Part shown: in pieces, positions 7,481 to 11,264 of the stretch | How positions within the stretch are numbered: the stretch's first letter is position 1 | Layout: every line of letters begins with the position of its first letter | The notes under the pieces: generated by a model | Databases searched by the model: none | What the model was told of the DNA's origin: nothing | What the model saw: only the letters and a program-made list of their open reading frames with translations | Assembly (NCBI GenBank): GCA_016840465.1 | Contig: JAEOSH010000063.1 | Coordinates: 1 to 11,264 of the forward strand | DNA length: 11,264 nt | DNA from: Candidatus Baldrarchaeum yapensis | Lineage (GTDB): Archaea > Asgardarchaeota > Baldrarchaeia > Baldrarchaeales > Baldrarchaeaceae | Direction of reading: 5' to 3' | Translations under genes and position numbers: made by a program

Positions 7481-8689
7481 TTGATGCACGGGACAGCTAT
7501 CGAATGCAGGCGCTGTCCACTTGACGACTCATTCGGAGACTTCCTAGCGGTCGTTGAGGGAGATATGAAGTTCAGGCTTACTAGGGTGAAAGTTTCTCCG
7601 CAGAGCGGATTGTGTAACCTTTGCGAAAGATTCCTCAGGGACGCGGGGAGGTTTTTCGAACTCAGAGATTTGGCAAGACGAGAAATGAGGAAGTTGTTCG
7701 AGCGCGTGAGAAAGGAAGGTCACCAATACGATGCAGTTGTCCTTCTAAGCGGAGGCAAGGACAGTTGTGCGGCTCTTATTCTCGCAAAGGAACGGTACAA
7801 GCTAAATGTGGTTGCCGCCAGCGTAGATAACGGATTCAGAATACCCGAGGCTGCCGAGAACATAGAGAATCTTACAGATAATCTTGGTGTGGACCTTATA
7901 ACATTCAAAATCCCGAGATCCCTCACAAAGAAACTGTTCCGGGTGTGCTTCGAGATCGGAGATCCGTGTGGGCTCTGCCAGACGCTCGTAGGCCCACCCA
8001 TCATGGCGAGAATTCAAATGAAGATGGGCATACCGATCAGAATTCTGGGCACAGATCTGGCGCAAGTCTATCACGAGTTTTTCATGCAACTGGATTACTG
8101 GAGAAAGAAAATAGGCATGGAGAATCCCTTTCTCTTCCGCCTATATAGCAACGATTACAAGATTTATGAGCGGAGATACGAACAGTACATCGATCTTCTG
8201 CGTAGAGAAATGCTTTCTGAGGCGTCGACCCTCTACGTGAGAGAACTTGAGCGCATTTACAAAGACCTTAGAAAGTACTGGCTGTCACCTGGAGAACTAT
8301 CTGAATTCTCACAGGAGAATTTTGTAAACGTGTACCTTACCGCCATGGAGATTACAGATTACTCCCAACAGAAAAAAATCCTCGAAAGGTACGGTTTTCA
8401 ATTGTCACCCGTATTCGGAGAACACGTATCCACAGATTGTAAGGTTGCGGCGGTTGCACAGTCCCTCTATACCGAGAAAATGTGGAAGGCCTTGAACTCC
8501 TGGAAGTGTCGGGTAGGCCTCATTTCCAAGCACGAAGTGCTGAACCTGATGAGAAATCGGCGGGCCCCTATTCCCACGATCAGAGAGTTCTTCGAAGAAA
8601 TAGGCGTGAAAAACATAAGGAATGTGTGGCAGCGAGCGTGGCTATATCAGGTGTTTGATAAGGATATTTTAGCGAGGATCTTTATGTGA
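7481..8689 (+). CDS. Cys-rich PP-loop (adenine nucleotide alpha hydrolase) enzyme, WbuX/N-acetyl-sugar-amidotransferase-like fold; substrate unknown
   Basis: N-terminal CRRC (aa 9-12) and CNLC (45-48); YDAVVLLSGGKDS; VDNGF..EAAENIENL; GDPCGLC (163-166); STDC (C320); RVGLISKHEVL. Start is TTG 7481 or ATG 7484. Confidence 0.8.
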   Translation: MMHGTAIECRRCPLDDSFGDFLAVVEGDMKFRLTRVKVSPQSGLCNLCERFLRDAGRFFELRDLARREMRKLFERVRKEGHQYDAVVLLSGGKDSCAALILAKERYKLNVVAASVDNGFRIPEAAENIENLTDNLGVDLITFKIPRSLTKKLFRVCFEIGDPCGLCQTLVGPPIMARIQMKMGIPIRILGTDLAQVYHEFFMQLDYWRKKIGMENPFLFRLYSNDYKIYERRYEQYIDLLRREMLSEASTLYVRELERIYKDLRKYWLSPGELSEFSQENFVNVYLTAMEITDYSQQKKILERYGFQLSPVFGEHVSTDCKVAAVAQSLYTEKMWKALNSWKCRVGLISKHEVLNLMRNRRAPIPTIREFFEEIGVKNIRNVWQRAWLYQVFDKDILARIFM

Positions 8690-9235
8690 ACGCCAAGAGT
8701 AGATGGATGACACGCAACTCCTAGATAAAACATATAACGTATGGCTAAAATGATAGCTTAATCCCCTTTACACATACTAACCTGAGAACTACGGACCTGA
8801 AAGCTGATATCTGCTCCTTTCGTTGTTTAAGCTCCTTAGCGCTGGTATATCAGTCTCGTAATTCCCATGCTGGTCAACGTCTCATATTGTTCGAATATCG
8901 AAATTTGAGTCCCATACTTGGCAATTATCGGATGATCATTTTTCTGAGATCTCCCAATTATTACATTATTTTTCTGAAACACGTACCAAGAACTTCGATG
9001 CTGTATCCGTTACCTTGAAATAAAGGACATCACGTCACGTCGCCTGAAAGGCGAACTTGCAAAGGAGGTTCGGCATAATGTCCATTTTAAGATATACGCA
9101 GAGATGCGGCTTGCATGATAGAAAGATATTTGAGGGGGGACCGTACCCATAGGTAAGGTGTTTCATAGGAGAAATATAATGGGGGCAGAAACGTATAGTG
9201 TTGCATTTGTTGCCCTCGTGCACCTTTGCAACCTC

Positions 9236-9249
9236 AAAACCTTTATAAA
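9236..9249 (+). promoter_or_regulatory. Strong BRE/TATA promoter candidate
   Basis: CAAAACC-TTTATAAA with the TATA at 9242-9249. Expected start about 9268-9275, where the GC-rich structured element begins. Confidence 0.6.
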
Positions 9250-9267
9250 GGACTTCTGTTGTGTTAA

Positions 9268-9452
9268 GCGGGCTCCGCCCGGGATGTGGGAGGGGCGGTG
9301 AGAGGGAGGGAAGCCCGAAAGGGCGGAGCGAAGGGTCAGATGGATGTGCGGAGCACCGTTCCCCGCGAAAGCCCGTCGATGAACCCCGAGGCGGGAAGGC
9401 TCTCCGCTACAAATGCATCAAAAATCGTGAAAGTAGCGGAGAGTCAGAACGG
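9268..9452 (+). mobile_element. Non-autonomous tnpB-derived (IS200/IS605- or IS607-type) mini-element: left-end/leader fused to right end
   Basis: Abrupt GC-rich island. The 5' part has hairpins (CCGCCC/GGGCGG; GCCC-GAAA-GGGC) and ends AAGGGTCAGATG. The 3' part (9343-9452) aligns structurally with the tnpB 3' end at 11124-11023. Exact boundaries are uncertain. Confidence 0.7.
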
Positions 9453-9472
9453 CTCATAAAAGTACCGTCCGT
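9343..9472 (+). ncRNA. Putative stand-alone omegaRNA (TnpB guide RNA): scaffold ~9343-9452 plus ~20-nt guide
   Basis: Stem GCGG/CCGC with an 11-nt loop containing CCGTTC (9356-9361), which is complementary to GAACGG (9447-9452) and would form a pseudoknot. 13-bp terminal stem GGCTCTCCGCTAC/GTAGCGGAGAGTC (9398-9410/9433-9445). Confidence 0.6.
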
Positions 9473-9531
9473 ACTTCGACAAAATGGATTCCGTGCAGGA
9501 TCTATGTAATGTTCGCACAGCTCCGCTACAA
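9402..9531 (+). repeat. 11-bp direct repeat CTCCGCTACAA, each copy forming the 5' arm of a hairpin
   Basis: Exact copies at 9402-9412 and 9521-9531. The second hairpin is GCTCCGC-TACAAG-GCGGAGC (9520-9539). Confidence 0.6.
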
Positions 9532-9553
9532 GGCGGAGCCGGTGGGTTGAAGC

Positions 9554-10774
9554 ATGCGATCTTCGGGATCTTCCGGTCACGGATCACAACTATTACCACT
9601 ACTCGCATTTTCAACAGTCTACTTCTTTGATTTGGTATTTAGACATGCACTTTCAGCCGTACTTCCGTGGTACAGGGTTGACACGGGATTCTCGTACGCG
9701 CAGCTGGGCCTGATACTTTCGGCCTACTTCTTGGGATATGGGGCGATGCAGATCCCCGGGGGCATACTCACAGACAAACTTGATGTTAGAAAATTAGTAA
9801 TAATTAGCATGATCGTAACCTCAATCATCGTTGTTCTGTTTCCGATGGGCAATACTTTCTGGCAAGCGTTTTTGATAATGTTGCTCATAGGAGTCGCATC
9901 GGCAGTAATTTTTGTAGGTCTCACAAAGTTGACTGCTTTGGCTTTTGACTATAGTGTGAGGGCGAGAGTCCAAGGATCTTGGGCAGCAGCAGGATCTTTA
10001 GGTGGCTCCGTAGTGATGGTCATAGGACCTCTCATGGCCGCCTGGGGAATGTGGCGAGAACTCTTTTATATTTCCGGGATAATTGGCTTGTTGGCAACAC
10101 TATTCGCTATGAGGTACATTTTTCGGCTAAAAACACACGCCTTGGGCTCTTCATATGTAAATTATGATGGCGAAATGTCCTTTAATTCCAGAGAATTGCT
10201 TAGCAGAAAGAACGTATGGCTTCTATGTCTTGCACAGCTTATATTCACGGGAGTAGCGGTCTCAAGGACCCAGTGGACGACGGCTTATCTAAAGGAATTT
10301 ACATTGCTCTCCGCAGAGGAAATCGCTATCTACACAGTAGCACTCATACCCGCATCGATCATAGGGCCCATAATATCGGGCTGGGTTGCGGATAGAATTG
10401 GAAGAAGAAACGGGGTCATTATTTGCTTCCTCATATCCAATGCGTTCCTTGTCCTTTGGATATGGGTCTCTTTCCCTGGTAACCCGCTGTGGGTACTAAT
10501 TTTGATAGCTCAGCCCATGATGATCTTCAGCGGCGCCGTTTTCACAAACTACGTATTGGCAGCAGAAATCGGAGGCACGAAATATGGAGGACTTATAACG
10601 GGACTCGTCAATACGTTCGGGATGGGGATAGGAGGATTTGTTTTCCCGTATCTGATCGGCATTATTATCGAAATCTATGCATCATATCCTCTGGCATTCC
10701 TATTTTTGGTAATCACTACAATTCTTGGCGTGATGCTGGAACTTGGAGTGAAGGAAGAGAAAATGCAAAAATAG
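9554..10774 (+). CDS. Major facilitator superfamily transporter (ACS/sugar-phosphate-permease-like)
   Basis: About 12 hydrophobic segments; motif A twice (GGILTDKLDVRK; GWVADRIGRRN); GGTGG SD-like motif at 9541-9545. Confidence 0.92.
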   Translation: MRSSGSSGHGSQLLPLLAFSTVYFFDLVFRHALSAVLPWYRVDTGFSYAQLGLILSAYFLGYGAMQIPGGILTDKLDVRKLVIISMIVTSIIVVLFPMGNTFWQAFLIMLLIGVASAVIFVGLTKLTALAFDYSVRARVQGSWAAAGSLGGSVVMVIGPLMAAWGMWRELFYISGIIGLLATLFAMRYIFRLKTHALGSSYVNYDGEMSFNSRELLSRKNVWLLCLAQLIFTGVAVSRTQWTTAYLKEFTLLSAEEIAIYTVALIPASIIGPIISGWVADRIGRRNGVIICFLISNAFLVLWIWVSFPGNPLWVLILIAQPMMIFSGAVFTNYVLAAEIGGTKYGGLITGLVNTFGMGIGGFVFPYLIGIIIEIYASYPLAFLFLVITTILGVMLELGVKEEKMQK

Positions 10775-11002: not shown

Positions 11003-11124
11003 ACGTAAGAAGTGCGGAGATAGGGGTTCAGCGGATGTCCACATTAGTGAGCGGACATCCGCCTTGGGGCGCATCACCCTTTTCGGGCTCGCCCCCCTTC
11101 GGGGCAGCCCCGAGGCCCCACATC
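11003..11124 (-). ncRNA. omegaRNA overlapping the tnpB 3' end, including the element right end and a putative guide
   Basis: GATGT-GGGG-(11-nt loop)-CCCC-GAAG at 11124-11097; perfect 10-bp terminal stem GCGGATGTCC/GGACATCCGC (11031-11040/11053-11062); GAACCCC at 11029-11023, followed by AT-richer flank. Confidence 0.6.
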
Positions 11125-11264
11125 CGAAGGTTCAGAACGGCCACGACATCCCTATCCAATACCGATCCGCATTTTTTACACTTCATCGACCTGCCCCGAT
11201 AGGCCACCATCGTGGCCCGACGGACGGGGCGGGTCTTGGAGGAGTTTTCATCAAAATGAGCAAA
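11028..11264 (-). pseudogene. tnpB: TnpB (IS200/IS605 OrfB) C-terminal Zn-ribbon/RuvC-III fragment, continuing beyond the window; possibly degenerate
   Basis: Frame is open from 11264: FAHFDENSSKTRPVRRATMVAYRGRSMKCKKCGSVLDRDVVAVLNLRMWG... It has the typical SKT(C)P.(C)...CxxCG..DRD..A..N pattern, but the first CxxC reads RPVR. Confidence 0.85.

Follow-up and report, generated by a model that had tools for sequence, protein, structure and literature searches.

Which transposon leaves behind a TnpB guide RNA at a locus that encodes no TnpB, and could such an RNA still serve a nuclease encoded elsewhere in the genome? The question is raised by the 11,264-bp stretch of DNA analyzed here (hereinafter the window), which constitutes the entire contig C27 of a 2.27-Mb Asgard archaeal genome (100 contigs, 96% complete). 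A first-pass annotation of the bare sequence had described positions 9268-9472 as a stand-alone TnpB guide-RNA (omegaRNA) mini-element with its own promoter. The sequence lies in an 864-bp spacer between two protein-coding genes:

7481-8689: PP-loop ATPase-like gene
9554-10774: MFS transporter gene, co-oriented with the mini-element and starting 102 nt past its right end

We approached the question through the ends and copies of the element, its full-length relatives, the conservation of its predicted RNA structure and the sequences at its junctions. The nearest genomes available for comparison belong to the same order as the host.

A sharp-ended, multi-copy family without protein-coding capacity

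The first-pass annotation had proposed searching the genome for further mini copies, and a BLAST search of the genome with positions 9100-9600 uncovered a multi-copy, sharp-ended family. It comprises 12 complete copies of 9182-9452 with 74-95% identity, which span about 266-279 bp, together with incomplete versions that are decayed or cut by a contig end (C57, C80 and C76:31882) and a 162-bp remnant on C1; the family is put at approximately 14 copies. When the copies were aligned along with 40 nt of flanking sequence, similarity ran from GG(GG)CAGAAACGTATAGTGTTGCATT to GCGGAGAGTCAGAACGG, and the flanks were unrelated. The mini-element proper is a sharp-ended repeat of 267 bp (9186-9452) that follows a G-run at 9181-9185, and the extent originally given to it was accordingly too short on the left, where the first 82 bp (9186-9267), including the true left end at 9186-9241, had been missed. 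Both junctions end in GG, and terminal inverted repeats and target-site duplications are absent. The intact copies carry GG before CAGAAAC and terminate in ...AACGG; the copy on C75 ends in GAGTGG, and two decayed copies deviate. The parts of the element and its immediate surroundings, all on the + strand except where indicated, are as follows:

9181-9185, +: G-run at the left junction; its last GG presumably forms the crossover dinucleotide of the serine recombinase, and GGGG presumably the TAM of TnpB
9186-9241, +: left end (LE), CAGAAACGTATAGTGTTGCATTTGTTGC..., present in all genomic copies as well as in the LEs of full-length IS607 elements, both the one on C96 and those of other archaeal MAGs
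9200-9205 on + and 9227-9232 on -: GTTGCA motifs in the LE
9242-9249, +: TATA-box-like sequence TTTATAAA, the predicted guide-RNA promoter, with the A-rich CTCAAAACC just upstream
9272-9329, +: 5' stem-loop of the omegaRNA scaffold; its stem is a perfect inverted repeat of 9 bp, GCTCCGCCC (9272-9280) with GGGCGGAGC (9321-9329)
9338-9452, +: 3' core of the scaffold and right end (RE), with stems 9349-9351/9363-9365, 9372-9377/9390-9395 and 9398-9409/9434-9445, ending in ...GUCAGAACGG
9356-9361, +: loop CCGTTC, proposed side of a pseudoknot, complementary to the terminal GAACGG (9447-9452)
9453-9472, +: predicted guide CTCATAAAAGTACCGTCCGT, the start of the unique 3' flank, different in sequence in every copy

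The only ORFs in the mini-element are 9261-9509 and 9286-9459, neither of which has a Pfam match and both of which run into the unique flank. We rejected the longer of these as a gene, as it matches no family, reaches into the unique flank and is broken by frame-shifting 1-2-nt indels among the copies. The element is thus devoid of protein-coding capacity, as a non-autonomous member of the IS607 family would be. A search of the genome with a covariance model of the scaffold (R1) retrieved 15 strong matches and several weaker, divergent ones, most of which are not adjacent to any tnpB gene.

A full-length IS607 relative elsewhere in the genome

The genome contains a single full-length IS607 element (C96:26176-28026), in which matches to the LE and RE of the mini-element lie 1.85 kb apart with two ORFs between them. 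One of these, tnpA, codes for an IS607-family serine-recombinase transposase with Resolvase (PF00239) and HTH_17 domains (NF033518 at 237 bits, cut-off 110). The other is a tnpB (NF040570 at 162 bits, cut-off 100; PF07282 at 77 bits), the product of which retains, on inspection by eye, the motifs of RuvC I/II/III (residues D/E/D) and of the zinc finger, namely VDVN, ALESL, CPICG...C.C and ADRD. Judging by its sequence, this TnpB is apparently catalytically intact and cognate to the mini-elements, and its gene is the only cognate tnpB that remains in the genome.

The expectation that both halves of the mini-element would match the ends of a full-length transposon was borne out by this tnpA(Ser)-tnpB element: about 50 nt of LE are common to the two, and 9338-9452 shares 93% identity with the 115-nt RE at C96:27912-28026. 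However, the segment 9272-9329, which had been taken for the left end, is instead a stem-loop derived from the zinc-finger codons of the parental tnpB (homologous to C96:27781-27826; score 40 vs 17.5 +/- 3.1 for shuffled sequences, reached in 0 of 500). Likewise, the notion that a tnpB ORF had been deleted between two GATGTG words has to be abandoned, since one word belongs to the CPICG-codon-derived GGGATGTGGGAG and the other to the start of the 3' core, both of which lie in the guide-RNA region. As the alignment places it, the loss of tnpA and most of tnpB occurred between the LE/TATA region and the zinc-finger segment, and a second deletion relative to the C96 element removed about 80 nt (C96:27831-27910) between the zinc-finger segment and the 3' core. 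We consider it likely that the mini-element descends from an IS607-family transposon with a tnpA serine recombinase, a tnpB and an omegaRNA, and is its non-autonomous form, stripped of proteins. The parent, being a serine-recombinase element, is of the IS607 type and not of the IS200/IS605 type.

The C96 element itself splits a sulfatase-like gene (L032:25-606 and L032:2430-2609), the upstream part of which matches Pfam Sulfatase and the downstream part, in another frame, gives a weak SGSH_C match. The reading frame of this gene is restored only by a joint of 2 G or 5 G, or by a register that shares GGT; the simple GG-core model predicts 4 G.

Covariation in the retained scaffold

The structural features noticed in the first pass could all be located in the mini-element: GATGT-GCGG-AGCACCGTTCC-CCGC-GAAA occupies 9344-9371, the loop CCGTTC (9356-9361) is complementary to the terminal GAACGG (9447-9452), and the long terminal hairpin (9398-9410 with 9433-9445) is followed by AGAACGG, which contains the GAAC noted there. 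A covariance model, which had been named there as a means of checking the structure, was built, and covariation among the homologs supports the RNA fold. For the 115-nt 3' core, we assembled an alignment (A1) of 29 distinct sequences comprising the host minis, the parent, and the full-length right ends and minis of other archaeal MAGs. RNAalifold applied to A1 returned three stems, with double pairing-preserving changes in 13 of 22 pairs. With the proposed pseudoknot included, 94.1% of the cells in A1 are paired, as opposed to 33-50% when the partners are slid by 1-3 columns; pairs with double changes number 13, compared to 2-5 in the slid versions, and the observed values were reached by none of 500 shuffles. 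As for the 5' module, it corresponds in 25 full-length tnpB genes to a 12-bp stem on either side of the zinc-finger codons; 7 of its pairs carry double changes and 82% of the cells are paired (25-48% in slid controls), and the mini-element of a related genome (G003) has a compensated version of the 5' stem, CTCGCTC/GAGCGAG.

In the window copy all 21 stem pairs are intact, and with model R1 its 3' core (9338-9452) is the best-scoring of the minis at 135.9 bits, the parent attaining 140.6 bits. The scaffold has a G+C content of 64% in a genome of 46%. The covariation identifies the retained part of the mini-element as a predicted structured RNA, namely the TnpB omegaRNA scaffold; we assume that this scaffold, which measures 245 nt at full length, tolerates the deletion of about 80 nt. 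The two sides of the pseudoknot are perfectly complementary, without mismatch, in the window copy and the parent, and are nearly invariant, with no double changes; a single C:A mismatch occurs in 9 of the 29 A1 sequences, including 7 of the 14 host-genome copies. Being complementary and nearly invariant, the pseudoknot is compatible with the data and not proven by them.

Rfam offered no RNA family with a better fit. The whole window yielded 0 matches at the gathering score, and the region 8700-9700, searched at E-values up to 10, yielded chance-level matches only, one of which, a minus-strand match to a miRNA model, corresponds to the omegaRNA terminal hairpin. In the same spacer, a weak match to a C/D-box snoRNA model at 8923-8981 (23 bits, E 3.9) with the layout GATGATC...CTGA...CTGA is probably due to chance, given that its spacing is unlike that of archaeal C/D sRNAs. 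A further hairpin, GCTCCGCTACAAGGCGGAGC, lies at 9505-9530, 55 nt past the element. An 11-nt stretch of it (CTCCGCTACAA) also occurs in the 5' arm of the terminal hairpin of the omegaRNA (9402-9412); it may be what is left of an earlier copy, a hairpin resembling a terminator, or a coincidence.

A tnpB of a different family at the end of the window

The first-pass annotation had derived the omegaRNA assignment from a structural match to a tnpB fragment at the other end of the same window:

11022-11264, -: 3' end of a tnpB of a different family, running off the contig (PF07282 match at 11127-11246; translation ending at 11028), with its own omegaRNA-like right end

The matching motif, GATGT-GGGG-CCTCGGGGCTG-CCCC-GAAG, is present as described at 11097-11124 on the minus strand (0 of 200 shuffles). 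Nevertheless, this gene was rejected as the parent: its right end attains only 11.2 bits with model R1 (E 0.008 in the window), as against 135.9 bits for 9338-9452, and it finishes in GAACCCC (...GCTGAACCCC), with family similarity ending at about 11022. It belongs to a different family and is a distant structural relative only; the structural match is a likeness between two related scaffold families and is not evidence of parentage. Inspection by eye suggests that in this second scaffold (11022-11133) the loop GGGG and the terminal CCCC could form an equivalent pseudoknot. The last 144 bp of the contig are identical to the end of another contig (C48:9093-9236), so the two contigs probably join there. 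Solo right ends of this second family are also found in the genome, at C72:13036-13145, on C16, and at C6:5998-6057 and C96:31127-31185.

Junctions, TAM and guide

Across 16 left junctions, the four bases that precede CAGAAAC are GGGG in 12 cases, AAGG in two, GAGG in one and TGGG in the full-length C96 element. The GG directly before CAGAAAC is invariant, and the base before this core (TAM position -3) is G in 13 of the 16, with A in three copies. The right end reads ACGG, with C at position -3 where the LE side has G. This pattern mirrors the published IS607 rules, and by analogy with them GGGG would be the TAM: a bacterial IS607 element has a strict GG core, uses TGGG as both target and TAM, has a scaffold ending in UCGG, and discriminates self from non-self at position -3 (10.1101/2023.11.20.567912), and other IS607 TnpBs also recognize G-rich TAMs, AGGAG or GAGGG (PMC11061315). 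Should G at -3 be required, excised sites of the three copies with A at this position would escape cutting. A scan of metagenomes for the empty site of the window copy (GAGAAATATAATG-N2-6-CTCATAAAAGTACC) gave no match, and a search of the genome and the fetched loci with the joined flanks of 15 copies gave no paralogous site spanning a junction; because no empty site was found, the crossover register within the G-run is not fixed.

On the right side, ...CAGAACGG is invariant in 15 full-length homologs from other archaea, in which the scaffold lies within the tnpB frame and terminates at this sequence, as it does in the minis. Divergence sets in right after it, which makes 9452 the last base of the scaffold and 9453 the first base of the guide. 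The original guide placement (9453-9472) agrees with this, as homology among the genomic copies ends exactly at 9452; the length of the guide is assumed from published TnpB systems. The first 16 nt of the window guide have their sole perfect genomic match at their own site, and in the genome search no guide of any copy had a second perfect target site. Positions 9453-9497 show weak paralogy to C6:9069-9114 on the minus strand (78% over 46 nt, E 0.004). This paralog is preceded by GGGG, making it a TAM-flanked near-match of the window guide with 2 mismatches in 16; it may reflect chance or a paralogous upstream region.

A conserved TATA-like box upstream of the scaffold

The first-pass annotation had also called a promoter box. 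Such a box is present and conserved; however, it is located at 9242-9249, 19 nt before the position at which the element had been made to start (9268). The sequence (C/T)TTATAAAGGA is kept in every near-full copy as well as in the mini-elements of three other genomes (G003 and, in a divergent subfamily, G001 and G004) and of ten metagenome contigs from other populations, and the TTTATAAA box ends 22 nt before the 5' stem, the usual distance from an archaeal TATA box to the transcription start. From this archaeal promoter geometry we infer that TTTATAAA would serve as the guide-RNA promoter. In other MAGs, the LE of full-length relatives carries TTTTATAAAG at a comparable position, so the box probably derives from the LE. 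It is co-oriented with the MFS transporter gene and no T-run intervenes, which makes read-through into that gene possible.

A proposed guide RNA for a TnpB in trans, and the alternatives

The earlier proposal of a protein-free element with an omegaRNA scaffold for a TnpB supplied in trans is upheld by the ends, the copies, the covariation, the lack of an Rfam rival and the intact-looking cognate TnpB. Going by sequence evidence, we regard it as probable that the window harbors a protein-free IS607 mini-element that has an intact omegaRNA scaffold and its own TATA box, draws its guide from the 3' flank and relies on TnpB in trans. Under this model, the C96 serine recombinase would move the mini-element in trans by recombination at the GG core. 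The LE-derived TATA box (9242-9249) would initiate transcription near 9272, and the product, a scaffold of about 180 nt extended by about 16-20 nt of read-through flank (9453-9472), would be loaded in trans into the C96 TnpB, the predicted target of the loaded guide being the GGGG-flanked CTCATAAAAGTACCGT. Upon excision of the mini-element, the empty allele would read ...AATATAATGGG(G)(G) directly joined to CTCATAAAAG, and this rejoined donor site, a G-rich TAM followed by CTCATAAAAG..., would be cut by the TnpB complex, whereupon homologous repair from the sister copy would restore the element. The occupied site would be spared because its right end presents ACGG and not GGGG.

The same locus could be read as an inert relic, i.e., a MITE-like deletion derivative that is or once was mobilized by the serine recombinase, and the RNA of which is not made or no longer serves a TnpB; the scaffold would then persist because the element is of recent origin or because its right end is required by the recombinase. 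Several copies are indeed decaying (those on C75 and C69, C76b, the 162-bp C1 remnant and the truncated C80 copy), seven copies have the pseudoknot mismatch, and one cognate tnpB is left in the genome. Moreover, a 15-nt stretch of the LE (9199-9213) is 87% complementary to the terminal-hairpin loop (9406-9420), which could accordingly be a recombinase site. Yet the mini-element kept two structured modules totaling about 180 nt while 1.6 kb was lost, far beyond the need of a recombinase site. Further, in the 14 genome copies included in A1 (13 minis and a cargo-carrying element on C76), 18 of 42 paired columns vary and nine copies are nonetheless without a stem mispair, and diverged minis of other genomes repeat the succession of LE, TATA box, 5' stem and 3' core, with compensatory changes in their stems. 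On balance, we hold the relic explanation to be unlikely. We attach very little credence to an exapted local function, whether through a promoter reading into the MFS gene (9554-10774) or by guiding a nuclease-dead TnpB-like regulator: the TATA box does face that gene, which begins 102 nt past the right end with no T-run between, but the family is multi-copy with unrelated neighbors, the cognate TnpB keeps its RuvC motifs, and the window copy is unremarkable among the copies except for being the most parent-like.

A more far-reaching version of the preferred model of a mini-element guided in trans would have the minis, which outnumber full-length elements by about 14:1 and occur in several archaeal lineages, as a separately selected, dispersed guide library. 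We view this as rather improbable. If true, it would mean that a single TnpB patrols many loci, a step towards a CRISPR-like separation of guide array and effector, and the deletion of about 80 nt would define a natural minimal scaffold for a thermophilic TnpB.

Relationship to known gene-less guide carriers

The closest described system is the CboIStron/IS607 (Zedaveinyte et al., 10.1101/2023.11.20.567912), with which the family described here shares the parental tnpA(serine recombinase)-tnpB gene pair, the GG core at the junctions, the lack of inverted repeats and target duplication, a G-rich motif beside the LE (GGGG here, TGGG there) and a scaffold that terminates in CGG, its position -3 being C where the TAM has G. 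In that study, engineered gene-less mini-IS elements acted as a guide source for TnpB in trans. The elements found here differ in being natural, multi-copy, gene-less and archaeal, in having no group I intron, in possessing an archaeal TATA box that takes the place of the tnpB transcript, and in lacking about 80 nt of the scaffold region. IS607 TnpB reRNAs have also been derived from RAGATH-18 RNAs (PMC11061315); these resemble the present RNA in being guide RNAs of IS607 TnpBs with G-rich TAMs, but they adjoin their own tnpB, whereas the mini scaffold has no match to any Rfam family including RAGATH-18 and belongs to a different scaffold family.

Among elements of other transposon types, PATEs of the IS200/IS605 group in Geobacillus stearothermophilus and Haloquadratum are short and protein-less and combine the LE and RE of a tnpB transposon (PMC10055086, PMC3119063); according to Meers et al., they often encode omegaRNAs that need TnpB in trans (PMC10055086). 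Classification of the mini-element as a PATE was considered and rejected: PATEs have subterminal hairpins and the ends of elements that a Y1 (HUH) transposase moves in single-stranded form, unlike the mini-element with its GG core and a parent encoding a serine recombinase (Resolvase PF00239, NF033518). It resembles a PATE in its working but is no PATE, because its parent uses a serine recombinase. Stand-alone OMEGA omegaRNA loci have likewise been recorded as mobilized, free of effector and transposase, present in the same genome as effector loci and functional in trans (Altae-Tran et al., 2021, as reported in PMC10691335). They share with the present system the separation of guide loci from the effector, and those tested are bacterial OMEGA systems, unlike the Asgard IS607-TnpB system known from sequence.

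In the literature on IS607 in connection with MITEs or Asgard archaea, we encountered no description of natural, IS607-derived, guide-only mini-elements, a result that is weak evidence of absence. Gene-less elements that carry guides are already known, and the mini-element is a clean new example of them and not a new principle: it agrees with the prediction from the literature and opens no new question of concept. For the serine-recombinase (IS607) branch, it provides a clear natural example, from an Asgard archaeon, of a guide that has become separated from its nuclease; the gene-less guide carriers in the literature are mainly of the IS605/PATE type or engineered. On the practical side, the family supplies a scaffold already trimmed by nature, a candidate G-rich TAM for a thermophilic TnpB and a covariance model with which further copies can be found.

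Distribution and further members of the family

Mini-elements of the same layout are present in G003, which contains a full-length right end in addition to a mini, and a divergent subfamily occurs in two other comparison genomes (G001 and G004). The layout is also seen in 13 metagenome contigs, three from the host population and ten from other populations. One metagenome contig (Ga0180300_10001449, L087) bridges the host contigs C71 and C91 across a mini-element with >99% identity.

Within the host genome, C82:5703-5958 is a second, divergent mini-element (about 253 bp; 39.6 bits with the family model), situated about 600 bp from the copy at C82:4835-5104 and in the opposite orientation. The mini copies associated with C39:1-28 and C69:3437-3464 have an identical 28-nt 5' flank and different 3' flanks, a pattern that points either to copies having recombined with each other or to contigs joined at the repeat during assembly. 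Finally, the cargo-carrying element on C76 (C76:22491-24413; L033:494-2414) has the same LE and omegaRNA right end, but tnpA and tnpB are replaced by about 1.7 kb of other cargo, and this cargo includes a gene for a 231-aa V4R-domain protein (PF02830, 33 bits).
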